From: Saprospiraceae bacterium | GTDB taxonomy: Bacteria > Bacteroidota > Bacteroidia > Chitinophagales > Saprospiraceae | DNA: 57,099 nucleotides | NCBI GenBank assembly: GCA_023301005.1 | Contig: JALZVK010000162.1 | Coordinates: 1 to 57,099 of the forward strand | Direction of reading: 5' to 3' | Shown here: positions 9,157 through 32,108 of the stretch, one piece after another | Position numbering within the stretch: position 1 is the first letter of the stretch | How the letters are laid out: each line of letters begins with the position of its first letter | The notes under the pieces: model-generated | What the model was told of the DNA's origin: nothing | Databases searched by the model: none | The model's input: the letters and a program-made list of their open reading frames with translations, nothing else | Program-made: the position numbers and the translations under genes

Positions 9157-9318
9157 AGAGCTTGTTGGGAAATTATATTTCGGCTAAAAACGCCCTTTTT
9201 TTGATGATACTTCTTTGAAAAAAAAGTCAAATAGCGAAGGCTATGTTCCTATTTATTTGCATCGTTTCATCAAAAAATGAATATTTTTATTTCAAAATCC
9301 AATTCCCCAACAAGCTCT
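9157..9318. repeat. Palindromic element D
   Basis: AGAGCTTGTTGGGAAATT (9157-9174) pairs with AATTCCCCAACAAGCTCT (9301-9318) with 1 mismatch. The inner part carries degenerate copies of the core boxes seen at 24370-24443 and 28949-29023. Confidence 0.75.
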
Positions 9319-11005: not shown

Positions 11006-11018
11006 TAGACTTGTTACC
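11006..11018 (+). repeat. Solo arm TAGACTTGTTACC (family E)
   Basis: The same 13-mer occurs at 24325 (+) and inverted at 22769-22781 and 24473-24485. Confidence 0.7.
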
Positions 11019-11241
11019 TTTTGAGAAATGTGAAAATTTCTTCCTTGTCTGAATAGATGTTTTTAAAACAATCTCAACGAAATCCACGAAATCACTACAA
11101 ATCCTGTTTATTTAACACATCTTAACAAAATAATTTAACTATTAAACCTTTCTATCATAGAGCTTTTTAGGTATTTTTACACTCTCTTGACAAAGAGCTT
11201 TTACAAAAACCTACTTCTTAAATTAAAACAACTTAAAGGTT

Positions 11242-20099: not shown

Positions 20100-20225
20100 A
20101 GGAATGCGAAATAAATAGATTCAGGATTTTCGCTATTTTTTTATTCTTATTTTCCTGCTGGCAGGCAGGAAAATAAGAATAAAATAAACAACCGAAAAAT
20201 CTGAATTTATTTATTTCGCATTCCT
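20100..20225. repeat. Palindromic element F, long nested form
   Basis: Outer arms are AGGAATGCGAAATAAATAGATTCAG / CTGAATTTATTTATTTCGCATTCCT. Inside are GATTTTCGCTATTTTT .. CCGAAAAATC and a central 18-bp hairpin TTATTCTTATTTTCCTGC-TGGCAG-GCAGGAAAATAAGAATAA. Confidence 0.85.
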
Positions 20226-22749: not shown

Positions 22750-22768
22750 ATAATAGTCGTTATCATAG

Positions 22769-22781
22769 GGTAACAAGTCTA
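22769..22781 (-). repeat. Solo arm GGTAACAAGTCTA (family E, inverted)
   Basis: Reverse complement of the 13-mer at 11006-11018. Confidence 0.7.
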
Positions 22782-24320: not shown

Positions 24321-24489
24321 ATATTAGACTTGTTACCCTTTAAAAAATATACTTCTGAAACAATCTTTGTTCGCTATTTTTCCTTAAAAATCAGTCATAG
24401 TATCAACAATACTCCTTCTTTTTAAGAAAAACTATCAAAAAAATCTAAGTTCCATAAGCACATTTTTCAAAGGGTAACAAGTCTATTGT
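24321..24489. repeat. Palindromic element E
   Basis: Terminal inverted repeats are TAGACTTGTTACCCTTT (24325-24341) and AAAGGGTAACAAGTCTA (24469-24485). Inner boxes at 24370-24390 and 24419-24443 are identical to those of element H in the opposite orientation. Confidence 0.85.
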
Positions 24490-24567
24490 ACAAATTTACT
24501 GAACTTTTTTAAAAACCAAAACAGGATGTCTATCTCGTTTTTTTCTAAAACTCCAACAATATAATAG

Positions 24568-26058
24568 ATGAATAAAAGAGCTATATGGGCAATTATCGGT
24601 TTGATGAGTGCAGCTATGATTGGAATCATCTTGTTGCAATTATACTGGATTAATTTTAATGTAAAATTAAATGAAAGCTATTTTGATAGAGATGTAAAAG
24701 ATGCAATTATCACCGTTGCCAAAAAATTAGAAAAAGCGGAAGACAATGCTGGAATCAAAACTCCTGCTTCTTATTCTTCGACAACTATTAGAAGACAACA
24801 GTTCGGAACGGAAACTAAAGTCTTCTCTCAAACTTATAGAAAAGGAACTCTCGTTCCTCAAGCGGTCAATCCTCTTTCGATCAATAATAATTATAATCCT
24901 AACATTCGTGAAATGGAATTACAAGAGCTACAAAAAATGCTCAACTTGCGACCGTTGGAAGAACGTATTGATTTAGAATTATTAGATAATTTATTGAAAT
25001 ATGAATTAAACGAAAATCGAGGTATTGATACTGAGTTTAATTATGGCGTTTTTTCAAATCGTACAGGATCATTTGTAATCAATAATGGTTCTTATGCGGT
25101 AGTGACTGAAAATTTTAATACTGCTGCAACAGTAGATAATGATTTGTATAATTCTATTTATCGAACTGAATTATTTTCTAGTTCTTATGCAGTAGATGCA
25201 CCAGGTCTGTTGATGATTCAATTTCCAAATAGAACAAGTATCATTTGGAGTTCTTCTTGGAAATCACTTTTAGCTTCTATTATTTTCACAGGATTGATTT
25301 TGTTTTGTTTCTCTTATACCATTTTAGTTATTTGGGAACAAAAGAAAGTATCTGAAATGAAAACAGATTTTATCAATAATATGACGCATGAGTTTAAAAC
25401 TCCAATTGCGACTATCTCTTTAGCGGCGGATTCTATTACAAGTCCAAAGATTTCTGGCAGTCCTGATAAAGTAAAACGTTTTGCAGATATCATCCGTCAA
25501 GAGAACAAACGGATGAACAGTCAAGTAGAAAAAGTATTACAAATGGCTGCGATTGATAAAAGAGAATATAAACTCAAAATGGCTCAAGTCAATCTTCATG
25601 ATGTTGTTAATCAAGCCGTACAAAATTCAAATTTGCAAGTAGAGAAGAAAGGAGGAATCGTAACTGCCGAACTCAATGCAAGCACTCCATTTGTATTTGG
25701 TGACTTAACTCATATTTCTAATATCATCAATAACCTATTGGATAATGCTAATAAATATTCCCCTGAACAACCAAAAATTTCTGTGCGTACACGCAATGTC
25801 GCACAAGGAGTTGAGGTTATTATAAAGGATAATGGAATTGGGATGAACAGGGAAGCTCTAAAACATATTTTTGATAAGTTCTTTAGAGTCCATACAGGTA
25901 ATCGACATGATGTAAAAGGGTTCGGATTAGGACTTAGTTATGTGAAAGCATTAATGGATGCGCACAAAGGACAAATAAGTGTAAAAAGTGATTTAGGAAA
26001 AGGAAGTACTTTCATACTTGTTTTTCCATATAATAATGTTCCTCAAGAGGAAGCTTAG
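24568..26058 (+). CDS. Sensor histidine kinase
   Basis: Two TM segments, H-box HEFKTPIATISLAADSI, N-box NLLDNANKYS, G1 DNGIGM and G2 GFGLGLSYV. Confidence 0.9.
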   Translation: MNKRAIWAIIGLMSAAMIGIILLQLYWINFNVKLNESYFDRDVKDAIITVAKKLEKAEDNAGIKTPASYSSTTIRRQQFGTETKVFSQTYRKGTLVPQAVNPLSINNNYNPNIREMELQELQKMLNLRPLEERIDLELLDNLLKYELNENRGIDTEFNYGVFSNRTGSFVINNGSYAVVTENFNTAATVDNDLYNSIYRTELFSSSYAVDAPGLLMIQFPNRTSIIWSSSWKSLLASIIFTGLILFCFSYTILVIWEQKKVSEMKTDFINNMTHEFKTPIATISLAADSITSPKISGSPDKVKRFADIIRQENKRMNSQVEKVLQMAAIDKREYKLKMAQVNLHDVVNQAVQNSNLQVEKKGGIVTAELNASTPFVFGDLTHISNIINNLLDNANKYSPEQPKISVRTRNVAQGVEVIIKDNGIGMNREALKHIFDKFFRVHTGNRHDVKGFGLGLSYVKALMDAHKGQISVKSDLGKGSTFILVFPYNNVPQEEA

Positions 26059-26327
26059 GAATGACTAAAGAATAAGTTACTATAAGTTATTTTTTAATCA
26101 TTACTTAATATTTTAAGAGTAGAAAATATTTGAAATTTTAAAAGAAAAATACTTTTCAACATTCCTCTCGTAACTATTGATAGCTTGATTATAAATCCTT
26201 AACTTTAACATATGTTAAGAAAGTAATTTAAAGCTAAAAGAATAAGAGAATTCTAAATTATTGAATAAAAACATTTTTTGATAAAACAGAACAAAGCCCT
26301 TATCAAAGAATCATAAAAAGTTTACAA

Positions 26328-27056
26328 ATGACAGCAGTTAACAATCGAATTTTATTAGTAGAAGATGATCAGAATTTTGGAGATGTTTTACGTTCTTATT
26401 TAGAAATGCACGAATACAATGTAACCCTAGCAACCGACGGTGAAGCAGGATTAGAAAGTTATAAAAAAGGAGAATTTGACCTTTGTATTTTTGATGTTAT
26501 GATGCCTAAAAAAGATGGTTTTACTTTGGCTAAAGAAATTAGGGAAAAAGATACTGAAATGCCTATCATCTTTTTGACTGCTAGAACAATGAAAGATGAT
26601 GTACTGAAAGGATTCAAAATTGGTGCTGATGATTATATCACAAAACCGTTTAACTCTGAAGAATTATTATTCAGAATCCAAGCGATTCTAAAAAGAAGTC
26701 AAGCGAAAGATGACCCACGTGAAGAAATAAAAGAATTTGAAATCGGACGTTATCATTTTAATTTCCCATTACGAATTTTGACTTTTACTAGTCCAACTGG
26801 CGAAGAGGAAAAAAATAAATTATCTCCTAAAGAGGCGCAATTGCTTCGCATGTTTTGTATGTATAAAAATGATATTCTGCCTCGTTCGGAAGCATTGACT
26901 AAGATTTGGTCGGAGGATAATTATTTTACAGCAAGAAGTATGGATGTATTTGTTACCAAGTTGAGAAAGTATTTAGCAGGTGATCTTAATATCGAAATCG
27001 TAAATATTCATGGTAATGGATTTCAACTATTAGTACGTAATAGCGAACAAGCTTAA
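26328..27056 (+). CDS. OmpR/PhoB-family response regulator
   Basis: Receiver domain (ILLVEDDQNF, CIFDVMMPKKDG, LTAR, KP) plus a winged-helix output domain (LSPKEAQLL .. VFVTKLRKYL). Confidence 0.92.
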   Translation: MTAVNNRILLVEDDQNFGDVLRSYLEMHEYNVTLATDGEAGLESYKKGEFDLCIFDVMMPKKDGFTLAKEIREKDTEMPIIFLTARTMKDDVLKGFKIGADDYITKPFNSEELLFRIQAILKRSQAKDDPREEIKEFEIGRYHFNFPLRILTFTSPTGEEEKNKLSPKEAQLLRMFCMYKNDILPRSEALTKIWSEDNYFTARSMDVFVTKLRKYLAGDLNIEIVNIHGNGFQLLVRNSEQA

Positions 27057-27104
27057 ATGAATTTTTTTAATGCTTCGCATTTTTATTTTTTATAAATAAA
27101 TGGA

Positions 27105-27140
27105 AGGACAAAAATCAATTTGATTTTTGTCCTTTTGTTT
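27105..27140 (+). terminator. Rho-independent terminator
   Basis: AGGACAAAAATCA-ATT-TGATTTTTGTCCT followed by TTTGTTTTTT. Confidence 0.7.
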
Positions 27141-27173
27141 TTTAGGGATTTAAAATAGTAGTACTTTTACATT

Positions 27174-27394
27174 TTTAGTAACTGTAAAGTAATCTAACCC
27201 CAACGGAGGTTAATAGAATAGCAAGGGGCATCGCCCCTTGAAAAAAAAAATTAGAAGGAAGCTCTGAAAGAGCGAAATAGTAATCAAGATATTTCGCCCC
27301 TTCAGGGCTTTCCTCGAATGTTATTTTTACAAGGGGCGATGCCCCTTGCTACTTTATTTGACCCCGTTGGGGTCTCTCTTACTCTTACTAAATA
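27174..27394. repeat. Palindromic element G: ~220-bp three-tier nested inverted repeat
   Basis: Three tiers pair: TTTAGTAA..CCCCAACGGAGGT with GACCCCGTTGGGGTC..TTACTAAA, AATAGAATAGCAAGGGGCATCGCCCCTTG with CAAGGGGCGATGCCCCTTGCTACTTTATT, and GAAGGAAGCTCTGAAAGAGCGAAATA with TATTTCGCCCCTTCAGGGCTTTCCTC. Confidence 0.85.
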
Positions 27395-27435
27395 AATACC
27401 TTTTTTATTTAGTAACATTCTTCAACAATTTTATT

Positions 27436-28008
27436 TTGAAAAAAAAAGAAGTCAAAATCAAACGAATATTAGGAGTAGATCCTGGAACTAACTTTCTAGG
27501 CTACGCTGTGATTGAGACTAAAAAAAATAAAATTAGTTTGCTAACCATAGGAGTCGTCTCAATGAAACATCTTCCTTCTCATCAACTGAAGCTCAAAAAA
27601 ATATTTGAAAGATTACAGGAACTTATCAAAACTTACCAACCTGATGAGATGGCGGTCGAAGCTCCTTTTTATGGAAAGAATGTCCAGTCCATGTTGAAGT
27701 TAGGAAGAGCGCAAGGTGTTTCGATTGCAGCAGCAATTACGCTTGGAGTAGAAATCACAGAGTACGCTCCTAAAAAAATAAAACAATCTATAACTGGAAA
27801 TGGAAATGCGTCTAAGGAACAAGTCGCTGCAATGTTAGTCAACATCTTAGATCAAAAATTGGATACGGAATATTTAGATTCAACTGATGCATTGGCGACT
27901 GCCATTTGTCATCATTATCAATCTTCTAGTGTTTTGGGAAATGGGAAAAAATATAGTGGATGGGATAGTTTTATAAAAGATAACCCTGATAGATTGAAAA
28001 AGAAATAA
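27436..28008 (+). CDS. ruvC: Holliday-junction resolvase RuvC
   Basis: KRILGVDPGTNFLGYAVIE, AVEAPFYGKNVQS, LGRAQGV and DSTDALATAICH. Start set at the in-frame TTG at 27436 because the longer ORF (from 27346) runs through palindromic element G. Confidence 0.85.
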   Translation: MKKKEVKIKRILGVDPGTNFLGYAVIETKKNKISLLTIGVVSMKHLPSHQLKLKKIFERLQELIKTYQPDEMAVEAPFYGKNVQSMLKLGRAQGVSIAAAITLGVEITEYAPKKIKQSITGNGNASKEQVAAMLVNILDQKLDTEYLDSTDALATAICHHYQSSSVLGNGKKYSGWDSFIKDNPDRLKKK

Positions 28009-28027
28009 TCTGAATTAACGATTCATT

Positions 28028-28831
28028 TTATTTACCAACAACTTCCATCAACTTCGCCACTCGATCATATTCCACATCATTTTCCCAATGTCCATCTTTT
28101 TTAAAATAAGAACCAATAATAAGAGCGTCAGCGACTCTAAAATATTTTTTTACATTTTTTAAAGTTACACCTGAACCTACCATCACAGGGATATTACATT
28201 TTGATTTTACAGCTTTGACTTCTTTGATGTCGGTTGCCACACCAGTTGAACTTCCTGTAATAATCAATCCATCACTTCTAAAATATTCTGCTGCTTTGGC
28301 AGTTTCCACCAAATCAACATCAGAGGTAACGACATGTGAACTATGTTTCTTTTTGATGTCATTAAAAATCAAAATATCATCCGCCTCTATCATTTTTCGA
28401 TAACGTAATAATTCGCCTGCATCAGAACTCATCCAACCTTCATCCGCAATATGTCCAAAAACAAAACCTTCACCTCTTATGAATTCTAAACCTGCTGCTT
28501 TCGCAATTGCCAATGCCGCTTGATTAGCACCTGCCAAAACTTGAACGCCACAAGGCAAAGGTATTTCTCTTTTAATTTCTCTAGCGATGACACTCATCGC
28601 AGCAGTAATCTCATGACCTACTTCTCTATTGAGATAAGGCGTATCATGCATATTTTCAATCATTAATCCATCAACACCTGCCAAATGATAAATAGCTGCA
28701 TCAGTCAACGCCTTTTCAATAATCTCATTGATTTCATATTGACTTGCAGGCGTTCCGGGTAACGCTTGCAAATGAATCATCCCGATTATTGAATATTTTT
28801 CAGGGAAAATATTTTTAAAGTGTGTATTCAT
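28028..28831 (-). CDS. BtpA/SgcQ-family TIM-barrel protein
   Basis: IIGMIHLQALPGTPAS start typical of the BtpA family, plus ENMHDTPY and a GSGV segment near the C-terminus. ATG at 28831 chosen; the longer ORF extends to 28894, up to the edge of element H (28905). Confidence 0.7.
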   Translation of the reverse strand: MNTHFKNIFPEKYSIIGMIHLQALPGTPASQYEINEIIEKALTDAAIYHLAGVDGLMIENMHDTPYLNREVGHEITAAMSVIAREIKREIPLPCGVQVLAGANQAALAIAKAAGLEFIRGEGFVFGHIADEGWMSSDAGELLRYRKMIEADDILIFNDIKKKHSSHVVTSDVDLVETAKAAEYFRSDGLIITGSSTGVATDIKEVKAVKSKCNIPVMVGSGVTLKNVKKYFRVADALIIGSYFKKDGHWENDVEYDRVAKLMEVVGK

Positions 28832-28904
28832 TCTTTTAGAAGTTAGGAATGTTTTTATTTTTACGACATGTCTTTGATTCTTTATAGATTGCAAATCTAC
28901 ATAA

Positions 28905-29068
28905 TTAAGTACTTGGAGATAAATATATTGATAATTATGACGAGTGAATTTTTTTGATAGTTTTTCTTAAAAAATCATTGCATAGCCTCGCTACGGAATT
29001 ATTTTTTAAGGAAAAATAGCGAAAAATCCGCCGTCATAATATCAATATATTTGTGTCCAAGTACTTAA
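28905..29068. repeat. Palindromic element H
   Basis: 38-bp arms TTAAGTACTTGGAGATAAATATATTGATAATTATGACG (28905-28942) and CGTCATAATATCAATATATTTGTGTCCAAGTACTTAA (29031-29068). Inner boxes are TTTTTTTGATAGTTTTTCTTAAAAA (28949-28973) and TTTTTAAGGAAAAATAGCGAA (29003-29023). Confidence 0.85.
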
Positions 29069-29085: not shown

Positions 29086-30009
29086 ATGCTAAATCATTAC
29101 TTAAAAATAACGCCCGAAGTTAGCGAAGCACTTTCCAAAGGACAACCTGTGGTAGCATTGGAAAGTACTATCATAGCTCATGGAATGCCTTATCCTAAAA
29201 ATGTAGAAACTGCTTTAGCAGTCGAAAGTTTAGTTAGAAAAAATGGCGCAACTCCTGCTACTATCGCTATCATTGATGGACAATTATGTGCGGGACTTTC
29301 TGAAAAAGAAATTCGTCATATCGGAAAGCTAGGAAAAAAAGTAGCGAAGGTAAGTCGGAGAGATATTCCATTTATGATTTCAAAAAAAATAACTGGAGCA
29401 ACGACAGTTGCTTCTACGATGATAATTGCGGAGATGGCTGGTATTTCTATTTTTGCAACGGGAGGAATCGGAGGTGTGCATCGAGGTGCGGAATCTTCGA
29501 TGGATGTTTCGGCGGATTTGCAAGAATTAGCTCATACTAATGTAGCAGTTGTTAGTGCTGGTGCGAAGGCTATTTTGGATTTAAAATTAACTTTGGAATA
29601 TCTCGAAACTTTTGGAGTTCCTGTAGTTGGTTATAAAACAGATGAGTTCCCCGCCTTCTATACTCGACAAAGTGGACTCAATGTAGATTACCGTGTGGAT
29701 AATGTTACAGAGTTGGCAGAAGCACTTTTTACGAAATGGGATTTAGGATTAAAAGGTGGTGTTTTAATTGCTAATCCAATTTTGAAAAAAGACCAAATGA
29801 AATTCAATTCTATTTCAGAAGCGATTGAAAAGGCGATTCAAAAAGCAGAACAAAAAGGTATTAAAGGAAAAGCAATCACTCCTTTCTTATTAGGAGAAAT
29901 AGTTAAAATCACAAAAGGAAAAAGTTTAGATGCGAATATTCAGTTAGTTTATAATAATGCGAAACTAGCTGCAAAATTAGCAGTTGCACTTTCTAAGAAA
30001 AATATATAA
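29086..30009 (+). CDS. psuG: Pseudouridine-5-prime-phosphate glycosidase
   Basis: PVVALESTIIAHGMPYPKN, GATTVASTMIIA and FATGGIGGVHRG blocks. ATG at 29086 chosen because the GTG at 29053 lies inside element H. Confidence 0.85.
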   Translation: MLNHYLKITPEVSEALSKGQPVVALESTIIAHGMPYPKNVETALAVESLVRKNGATPATIAIIDGQLCAGLSEKEIRHIGKLGKKVAKVSRRDIPFMISKKITGATTVASTMIIAEMAGISIFATGGIGGVHRGAESSMDVSADLQELAHTNVAVVSAGAKAILDLKLTLEYLETFGVPVVGYKTDEFPAFYTRQSGLNVDYRVDNVTELAEALFTKWDLGLKGGVLIANPILKKDQMKFNSISEAIEKAIQKAEQKGIKGKAITPFLLGEIVKITKGKSLDANIQLVYNNAKLAAKLAVALSKKNI

Positions 30010-30477: not shown

Positions 30478-31701
30478 ATGCGATCACAAAAAATAACATT
30501 CGAAAATTCTAATGGTTATACACTTTCAGCTCGATTAGAATTTCCACCTGACAGTCATCCTTATGCCTTTGCTATTTTTGCACATGTCTTTACGGGTAAT
30601 AAAAATTTATCCGCTACTCGTCATATTAGTCGAGCGTTAACACAACATGGTATTGGTGTTTTGCGATTTGACTTTACAGGTCTTGGGGAAAGTGAAGGTG
30701 ATTTTGCAGATACTAATTTCTCTTCTAATGTTGAGGATTTATTAGCGGCGGCTAGTTATTTGGAAACAAATTATGAAGCACCTCGAATTTTAATTGGACA
30801 TTCGTTGGGTGGTGCGGCTGTAATTTTTGCAGCTTCTCAAATTGATTCTATTCAAGCGATTGCTACGATAGGTGCGCCTTCTGAACCTGAGCATGTTGCT
30901 CATCTTTTAGAGGATAAATTAGAAGATATTGAAGAAAAAGGAATTGCCAATGTTTCTATAGGCGGAAGAAGTTTCACTATCAAAAAACAATTCCTTGATG
31001 ACTTACGAAGCAAGGATATGTTTTCTATTTTAAAGAACTTAAAAAAACCAATCTTGGTTTTACACTCTCCTCAGGATTCAGTTGTTGAAATTGATAATGC
31101 TGCAAAAATTTATCAAGCTGCTTTTCATCCTAAGAGTTTTGTCTCTCTTGATGGCGCAGACCACATGCTTACTAAAAAAATAGATTCGTCGTATGCAGGG
31201 AATTTAGTCGCTTCGTGGATGACTCGATATGTTGCTCCTCCTAAAAAAGAAAAATTATCAACTGATGCACAAGTTGCAGTTCGATTGGGAGACATTGGTT
31301 TTACAACTGAAATACAAGCAGGGGCGCATGGATTAATTGCCGATGAAAATGAAGAGGTAGGTGGTGATGATTTTGGACCTTCTCCTTATCAATATCTTTC
31401 TTCTGCATTGGGTGCATGTACGGCGATGACTTTACAAATGTATGCTCGAAGAAAAAAATGGGATTTGAAAGAAGTGAAAGTTCATATCGATCATGGAAGA
31501 AAATATGTTGATGATTGTATGGCTTGTATAGAGGAAAGTAAGGGAATGAAAATCGATCATTTTGAAAGAGTAATTGAGTTGGAAGGAGATTTAACTGATG
31601 AACAAATTACTCGACTTTTAGAAGTTGCAGATAAATGTCCTGTGCATCGTAGCTTGAATAAAGAGGTTAGAATTAAAACAACTTTAAAAGCATTAGTTTA
31701 A
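30478..31701 (+). CDS. Alpha/beta hydrolase fused to an OsmC/Ohr-family domain
   Basis: N-terminal half has GHSLGG nucleophile elbow. The C-terminal ~140 aa is OsmC-like (GPSPYQYLSSALGACTAMT .. DKCPVHRSL). Confidence 0.8.
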   Translation: MRSQKITFENSNGYTLSARLEFPPDSHPYAFAIFAHVFTGNKNLSATRHISRALTQHGIGVLRFDFTGLGESEGDFADTNFSSNVEDLLAAASYLETNYEAPRILIGHSLGGAAVIFAASQIDSIQAIATIGAPSEPEHVAHLLEDKLEDIEEKGIANVSIGGRSFTIKKQFLDDLRSKDMFSILKNLKKPILVLHSPQDSVVEIDNAAKIYQAAFHPKSFVSLDGADHMLTKKIDSSYAGNLVASWMTRYVAPPKKEKLSTDAQVAVRLGDIGFTTEIQAGAHGLIADENEEVGGDDFGPSPYQYLSSALGACTAMTLQMYARRKKWDLKEVKVHIDHGRKYVDDCMACIEESKGMKIDHFERVIELEGDLTDEQITRLLEVADKCPVHRSLNKEVRIKTTLKALV

Positions 31702-31723
31702 GTAGTTAGACAAAAGAAATATC

Positions 31724-31969
31724 ATGAAAGAAAAATATATTCCTATCAATTGTGATTTTTATGATGAAATCGAAATCTTGGCTATGCGTAGAACGAAGTG
31801 CAAAATAGTATATCAAAATAAAGAAAACGAAGTGCAAACTATCGAAGGTATCATCAATGATGTCTATGCAAAAAATAAAGAGGAATTTTTAATTGTAAAT
31901 AAAGAATTGAAAATTCGATTGGATCAATTGATTTCTATTGATGATAAAATGGTGCCTAAGGCTTGTTAA
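31724..31969 (+). CDS. Rof-like (Rho-binding antiterminator family) small protein
   Basis: 81 aa. YIPINCDFYDEIEILA and a later LKIRLDQLISI block parallel E. coli Rof (YQPINCDDYDNLELA .. LRLDKITSF). Confidence 0.65.
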   Translation: MKEKYIPINCDFYDEIEILAMRRTKCKIVYQNKENEVQTIEGIINDVYAKNKEEFLIVNKELKIRLDQLISIDDKMVPKAC

Positions 31970-32007
31970 ATTTTTTGTCCTAAAATTAAAACACGTTAAT
32001 GATACTC

Positions 32008-32063
32008 GACCTTTATTTTTCAATCTACCTGTCGGCAGACAGGTAGATTGAAAAATAAAGGTC
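32008..32063. terminator. Very long perfect hairpin (26-bp stem) between convergent genes; bidirectional terminator candidate
   Basis: GACCTTTATTTTTCAATCTACCTGTC-GGCA-GACAGGTAGATTGAAAAATAAAGGTC. Confidence 0.8.
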
Positions 32064-32108
32064 AAATGTTAGTACTGAATAGTTACAAATAAATTTTATA
32101 ATTCAACA

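Follow-up and report, generated by a model that had tools for sequence, protein, structure and literature searches.

Two repeats with identical inner boxes in a Saprospiraceae contig very probably belong to one family of palindromic, MITE-like elements

The DNA analysed here, called the window, is a 57,099-nt stretch from a Saprospiraceae bacterium (contig JALZVK010000162.1, our C162, of GenBank assembly GCA_023301005.1, our G000). It carries two long palindromes, E and H, that share two exact inner boxes in opposite orientation. Our results suggest that E and H are very probably two subfamilies of a single family of mobile, non-coding elements of ~160 nt, palindromic over their whole length and similar to MITEs, the miniature transposable elements with inverted repeats. 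What is inserted at a site, or absent from it, is the whole unit including its arms. The family is a new and well-delimited one of miniature transposons; a search of the full-text literature turned up no account of such repeats in Saprospiraceae.

The 25-mer at 28949-28973 in H is the exact reverse complement of 24419-24443 in E, and a repeat search extended this match to 26 nt at 100% identity. Likewise, the 21-mer at 29003-29023 in H is the exact reverse complement of 24370-24390 in E. With up to three mismatches allowed, each box was present in the window at E and H only; the chance expectation, from dinucleotide-preserving shuffles, was 0.00 matches for the 25-mer and 0.02 for the 21-mer. 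The centres between the boxes (28 nt in E, 29 nt in H) are unrelated, and so are the outer arms. An earlier note on this DNA had described identical, inverted boxes set in elements with unrelated arms and different centres, and on direct reading this description holds to the coordinate. The note had also seen degenerate versions of the core in two further elements, D and the long form of F. A profile of the core (box A, centre, box B) scored H at 68 bits, E at 38 bits and D at 11.8 bits, which leaves D as a diverged and weak relative. The long form of F was matched only at an E-value above 3 and shares a stretch of merely ~14 nt, placing F outside the core family.

The same profile was used to search the contigs of G000, an assembly of 4.17 Mb in 448 contigs with 32.5% GC. 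It detected 69 separate core loci, a lower bound for a genome that is 67% complete, and many of the copies sit at contig ends. Nearly all complete copies are ~160-nt palindromes; their arms are 41-44 nt long and are paired over this length with a mean complementarity of 0.82. The main arm classes are S1 (tip TAAGTAGTTAGAC, ~30 copies), S2 (tip TAGACTTGTTACC, ~20 copies, E among them) and S3 (tip TAAGTACTTGGA, ~9 copies, H among them), and there are several minor ones. The arms had been called locus-specific, a description that fails within G000 itself, where those of E recur ~20 times and those of H ~9 times. E has copies of 97% identity at C248:10155 and C373:4772. The elements are 158-165 nt long, and no open reading frame (ORF) of at least 80 aa starts inside them, except for a GTG frame from the right arm of H. 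Of 43 placed copies, 41 are intergenic. Their spacers were tandem, divergent and convergent in 21, 16 and 4 cases, respectively, compared to 24.6, 10.3 and 6.1 expected, which is no significant excess of any type.

To describe the classes, 100 complete copies from G000 and other Saprospiraceae were compared, and these sort into ~21 arm classes. Between classes, identity was 0.42 in the arms (0.38 for shuffled arms), 0.90 in box A and 0.78 in the box B region, which had played no role in picking the loci from genomes other than G000. In a class-weighted consensus, both boxes are conserved at 90% or more at most positions. They depart from a perfect palindrome in a conserved manner, with CGATAG opposite ATAGCG producing two purine-purine mismatches. 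Across arm classes, species and genera the boxes hardly vary. When one genome of each prokaryotic species was scanned for the exact pattern, at least 90 loci matched. Among the matches listed, almost all were in Saprospiraceae metagenome-assembled genomes, full cores occurred in Saprospiraceae only, and other Saprospiraceae carried the same core between many further arm pairs. The few matches outside the family and on two viral contigs consisted of box A alone and were set aside as chance. In G041, a long-read Saprospiraceae genome, there are ~29 copies in the form of near-identical, complete 162-nt units, with boxes A and B always ~55 nt apart. Core identity was 86-93% in all nine congeners compared (G002, G003 and G006-G009 among them), against 74-82% for the flanking genes. 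From the outside in, each copy consists of a short tip (AGTA.. after TA or AGAC.. after A(A/T)T), an outer arm that is free to vary yet self-complementary, an inner arm conserved in part, box A, a small apex hairpin that differs from class to class, box B and the mirror arm.

The unit that moves was read from filled and empty sites. Contigs of a sister strain, drawn from public algae-metagenome runs, are ~95% identical to the window. One of them joins position 24321 to 24484, so that 162 nt of E are absent with four ambiguous letters (TATT) at the joint. Position 28904 is likewise joined to 29065; here 160 nt of H are absent (158 + 2), three letters are ambiguous and the window reads TTAA on either side. 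The arms of E and H are thus missing together with the core, which makes the whole element the mobile unit. The H site is also empty in six congeners. Elsewhere in the spacer of the H site, the congener G009 carries an S2-class copy where G008, G003, G002 and G007 are empty, and the shared letters are just ATT. A TAAGT-class copy of G009 is missing from G006, which has a single TTAA at the site. Four clean filled/empty pairs were obtained in all; a further comparison, at G008:C37, was too rearranged for a duplication to be read.

The flanks of the copies define the footprint of insertion. Identical 3-nt flanks surround the AGAC...GTCT tips in 24 of 27 S2 copies (AAT in 13, ATT in 10 and GTT in 1), and AAT and ATT occur in both orientations relative to the interior. 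Copies of the TAAGT class invariably have TA at both ends, and T..A lies outside the TA in just 11 of 44, indicating that the duplication is TA rather than TTAA. The footprint is therefore a 3-bp A(A/T)T duplication for the class of E and a 2-bp TA duplication for the class of H. The flanks of 19 near-identical 162-nt copies in G041 (L124-L142) were tallied separately. Their left flank is random, TA follows the right-hand TA in 11, and T comes first in 14.

The arms are kept paired by compensatory change. In an alignment of 27 sequences spanning the classes, RNAalifold predicted 56 pairs, 36 of which have changed on both sides. Standard pairs made up 90.0% of the paired positions, a value reached in none of 500 shuffled alignments (73.8%); sliding the pairing gave 52-64%. 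Covariation was seen in 26 of 27 arm pairs. The pairing is also asymmetric between strands. On the strand that reads box A first, here the top strand, the alignment holds 128 G·U against 21 A·C cells, and the relation is reversed on the opposite strand. The top strand folds more stably in 100 of 100 copies and in 21 of 21 classes, with values of -64.5 kcal/mol against -47.0 kcal/mol for the bottom strand under RNA parameters, and -38.6 against -31.1 under DNA parameters. Arms alone favour the top strand in 19 of 21 classes. When mismatches were counted once per class, there were 49 G·T and 10 A·C (p = 3e-7), and the outer arms alone, which are unrelated between classes, gave 31 and 5. The more stable a mismatch type is on the top strand, the higher it ranks. 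Copies are oriented at random to their flanking genes, 11 running with them and 10 against them in tandem spacers, so the strand bias belongs to the life cycle of the element itself. Private, recent mismatches still stand at 51 to 25, so a mutational component is possible. Of the families with other interiors described below, Z shows no strand asymmetry and X a weak one (7 copies).

These observations raise the alternative that the module of box, apex and box is first of all a functional element in its own right, a structured RNA or single-stranded DNA, for which the transposon ends are only a vehicle, and that selection acts on the cargo. The strand-specific wobble in every copy and class, down to outer arms that have nothing in common, and the mismatch order that follows single-strand stability would fit such a cargo, as would boxes that are more conserved than the adjoining protein genes and that retain their purine-purine mismatches. 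Against it, no Rfam family matches: a tRNA alone reached the gathering threshold of Rfam 15 in the window, permissive thresholds brought up nothing relevant, and E and H gave chance-level, microRNA-like matches. No promoter or terminator turned up consistently, the elements are not biased in orientation to host genes, and biased mutation, for instance where one strand is exposed to deamination, could swell the G·T excess. We consider this alternative unlikely. For the family of mobile palindromes, a related proposal is that the module is a strand-specific functional element (a structured RNA, or a hairpin recognised as single-stranded DNA) that has moved from one set of transposon ends to another, with at least two systems involved, one making 2-bp and the other 3-bp duplications; we put it forward as a tentative and rather doubtful extension. 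In the reading of E and H as one family, the module would be a cis-acting part whose hairpin is recognised in single-stranded form, as RNA or DNA, on one strand only.

Why E and H share their boxes exactly was addressed by comparing identities within and between classes. Box identity is alike between classes within G000 and between genomes (0.88-0.94 for box A, 0.79-0.88 for box B), and identity of the centre is 0.60-0.64 between classes against 0.75-0.76 within a class. Equal conservation of the boxes across classes and genomes, a class-specific centre and conservation of the core in congeners together indicate that the exact identity between E and H reflects a family-wide constraint and bears no trace of recent transfer. 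The earlier note had named modular recombination between elements as a possible origin, and in its recent form this would mean that the core was lately copied between unrelated elements by gene conversion or template switching. Template switching has been published as a route by which hairpins are created and kept (bioRxiv 10.1101/2021.04.15.439925), and such exchange would also account for mosaic arms, for two chimeric copies and for the same tips surrounding other interiors. However, box identity between the classes of G000 is no higher than between genomes, the class-specific centre leaves no recent block transfer visible, and the centres of E and H are unrelated. A recent exchange behind the E/H identity is, in our judgement, improbable.

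Reassortment on an evolutionary scale is another matter, and this part of the idea stands, with shared tips, mosaic arms, chimeras and two duplication lengths on its side. The S2 tips also bound an unrelated interior of ~161 nt (family Z) with the same AAT duplication, as well as other interiors, and TAAGTAC tips bound families X and Y. Among arms, S3 has its outer 24 nt in common with S3b and its inner 16 nt in common with S6. In one chimera (C52:21998) an S2 arm and an S3 arm enclose one box; in the other (C187:1011) the core lies between a D-type and an S2 arm. That one core occurs with two tip classes of differing duplications argues that tip and interior modules were reassorted at some time. 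Over the history of the family, the box-apex-box module would have been re-packaged between tip modules by recombination or nesting.

Several side observations concern these modules. A further mosaic at C121:1845-2020 has the unusual centre of E, with an 8-nt insert, between different boxes and arms. Families X (C44:2634-2800, C214:4594-4760) and Z (C22:1292-1452, C333:15288-15448) are palindromes of ~160-170 nt with the same two tip types and unrelated interiors; X has at least 25 copies, mostly at contig ends, and all such families are nearly equal in length. A 26-nt mini form of the TAAGTAC tip (TTAAGTACTTAGACATAAGTACTTAA) occurs at no fewer than eight sites in G000, on C46, C78, C100, C118, C290, C340, C397 and C418. 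A deletion between AAGTA repeats of family X could have produced it, yet the product is identical at many sites.

The central suggestion of the earlier note was that a small palindrome, here the ~80-nt box-centre-box core, lands in the loops of older, long hairpins. The boxes do always lie between inverted repeats, and both tip classes have mini-hairpins made of arms only (for example C271:2450 and the 26-nt TTAAGTAC.. minis). However, the empty alleles of E, of H and of the congener copies lack the arms as well. No core-only copy was seen in unique DNA among the 69 + 88 loci, and the arms of every class keep to a length of 41-44 nt. The short forms of S1 have their junctions at the direct repeat AAAAGA and leave unequal arm remnants, indicating that they are deletions and not empty ancestors. 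Russian-doll nesting itself does occur in several families, at arm, box or apex, with the difference that the nested pieces are GC-rich palindromes of 18-20 nt and not the core. A 20-nt palindrome of this kind sits at one fixed point of box B in S1 copies (16 of 17 occurrences), a position that means one event followed by amplification and counts against the loop model. Related palindromes are found in an S2 arm of another genome and in the centre of the long form of F. S2 arms contain a second GC palindrome, which is also found at the apex of a window element (31997-32074), and a third lies in the apex of two S3 copies. Insertion into a hairpin is rejected for E and H, and as an account of the family it is very improbable. 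GC palindromes of the CCTGCC..GGCAGG and ACCTGTC..GACAGGT types were also noted at 20155-20175 and 32020-32050 of the window and on C206, C247, C379 and C434; they recur in arms, boxes or apexes of different families, as if secondarily inserted. The GC clusters of yeast mitochondria are mobile, GC-rich palindromic clusters nested in other sequences, and the 18-20-nt palindromes, as opposed to the core, resemble them in behaving as small nested inserts.

If E and H belong to one family of mobile palindromes, the elements would move in trans through DDE-type transposases that read the tips, and the two tip classes are probably served by two different enzymes. For H-type tips the best lead would be insertion sequences of the ISNCY/NF033593 type (ISDol1 group), whose tips have the form GT.. 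or AGT.. after TA. An intact copy in G044 (L223) has TA followed by GTTCTTGGCAG, and decayed copies in G043 have TA followed by GTGCCTGTACGG. These resemble the element tips, in which TA precedes AGTTCTTGGACA (family Y), AGTACTTGGA (S3 and X) or AGTGCCTC (other genomes). On this likeness, ISNCY/NF033593 is a candidate only. No intact NF033593 transposase was found in G041, G042 or G045, with G044 having the only intact copy; G041 and the genomes of the genus without one still hold elements, near-identical ones in G041. Tips of the E class have no ISNCY counterpart and no other matching insertion-sequence candidate. In G041, arms or boxes split by a gene were sought and none was found. Two other leads were discarded. 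When G000 was searched for pairs of family tips at the spacing of an insertion sequence, the one pair obtained (2.8 kb) proved to be two separate copies on C406, and the three IS630-family types of G041 have unrelated ends. Mobilisation as single-stranded DNA by a REP-associated tyrosine transposase (RAYT) or an IS200-type Y1 transposase, in the manner of repetitive extragenic palindromes (REP) and REPINs, would suit the hairpin form, the strand asymmetry, the GTAG within S1 tips and the Y1 genes of 8 of 10 genus genomes, but it is scarcely credible given that target duplications are present where IS200/IS605-type elements make none, that insertion orientation is independent of the target word (13 AAT, 10 ATT), that 0 of 12 Y1 genes have cores or these tips within 1.5 kb, and that G007 (100% complete) and G000 carry cores yet have no Y1 match.

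Bacterial MITEs that fold into hairpins include Correia/NEMIS of Neisseria, ERIC and YPAL of Yersinia and RUP of pneumococcus (PMC3733652). The elements described here share with them a length of 100-170 bp, the absence of coding capacity, terminal inverted repeats, intergenic location, short duplications of the TA type, subfamilies, internal-deletion forms and hairpin potential over the whole length, and they are dispersed in multiple copies with presence/absence polymorphism. Unlike them, they have conserved interior boxes, ~21 unrelated arm classes on one core, two tip classes with 2-bp and 3-bp duplications, and a uniform strand asymmetry that is independent of host gene direction. With REP, BIME and REPIN sequences they have in common intergenic palindromes, a mosaic modular build and hairpins kept by compensatory change. 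REPs, however, are 20-40 nt long, lack a target duplication and flank a RAYT gene, none of which applies here. From IS200/IS605-type elements of the PATE kind they differ in having duplications and in showing both AAT and ATT on the top strand.

Several points weigh against the reading of E and H as one MITE-like family. A single study supplied the contigs behind the empty sites of E and H, and the clean filled/empty pairs number only four. Simple common descent sits poorly with a single core that has duplications of two lengths, and the preference of G041 copies for TA on the right flank only is not predicted by a plain TA duplication. Neither G000 nor G041 yielded an autonomous element carrying these arms or boxes. 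Across 10 genomes of the genus the candidate NF033593 transposase is nowhere intact, being either missing or present in fragments, and the ISNCY tip agrees with the H tip at only ~13 of 19 positions. Strand-specific pairing is unexpected for a double-stranded cut-and-paste element, and here the interior is conserved, whereas most MITEs conserve their ends.

The features of the window are listed in Table 1.

Table 1. Positions of elements E and H, their parts and related features in the window
Feature	Positions	Strand	Remarks
Element E proper	24326..24484	-	159 nt, tips AGAC...GTCT, class S2b; better-folding top strand is minus
Left 3-bp target duplication ATT of E	24323..24325	.	Sister joint ambiguous over 4 letters TATT; S2 flank tally
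Right 3-bp target duplication ATT of E	24485..24487	.	Sister joint and S2 flank tally
Box B of E, 21-mer	24370..24390	-	Sequence
Apex (centre) hairpin of E	24391..24418	-	Class-specific variant common to the C248 and C373 copies
Box A of E, 25-26-mer	24419..24444	-	Sequence and repeat pair
Element H proper	28908..29065	+	158 nt, tips AGTAC...GTACT, class S3; top strand is plus
Left TA of H target duplication	28906..28907	.	Locally TTAA 28905-28908 fits equally well
Right TA of H target duplication	29066..29067	.	Sister joint and flank tally
Box A of H	28949..28973	+	Sequence
Apex (centre) hairpin of H	28974..29002	+	Sequence
Box B of H	29003..29023	+	Sequence
Solitary E-class tip, without core or partner arm	11006..11022	+	Repeat pairs
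Solitary E-class tip	22765..22781	-	Tip search
Solitary S1-class tip, 5 nt before ATG at 31724	31699..31719	+	Tip search
Element D, diverged weak core relative with its own arm type	9157..9318	.	11.8 bits; D-type arm with canonical core at C187:1011

Solitary tips were observed near gene starts. The 17-nt E-class tip has ~48 occurrences without a partner in G000, some of which are contig breaks, and in 11 of the partnerless cases an ORF of at least 80 aa begins 8-43 nt downstream. The solitary S1 tip of the window (31699-31719) precedes a small ORF at 31724-31969, whose N-terminus looks like that of the Rho modulator Rof. The -7 promoter word of Bacteroidota is TAnnTTTG, and the E-class tip starts with TAGACTTG, which is near to it. 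The right arm of H contains the exact word (TATATTTG) at 29046-29053, facing outward and 32 nt before the ATG at 29086, and H itself ends 20 nt before that ATG. When the word was sought by eye, it was found in the right arm of H only; the other S3 copies lack the exact word, which is therefore no trait of the family. A third palindrome, unrelated to E and H and built in three tiers, lies upstream of ruvC (27193-27418) and is also missing in the sister strain. In contigs from two runs, 27192 is followed by 27419 at a joint where three letters (TCT) are ambiguous, and the missing piece extends ~45 nt to the right of the palindrome.

With these results, the puzzle of the identical boxes gives way to a defined family of elements in a bacterial group that is abundant but little studied, and the limits, target rules and copy variants of the family are now known. 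In practical terms, the repeats break Saprospiraceae genome assemblies. Elements lie within ~20 nt of start codons and may alter gene expression. For miniature transposons the family is unusual in that the interior is conserved above the ends, one interior has two insertion footprints and the strand preference is uniform. Should the strand bias stem from a stage as single-stranded RNA or DNA, it would bear on how such hitch-hikers are recognised and copied. If the box-apex-box module is indeed a re-packaged functional one, selection would act on the cargo or cis-module instead of the terminal repeats, reversing the usual logic of MITEs, and the propagation of these elements in Saprospiraceae would include an undescribed single-strand step.

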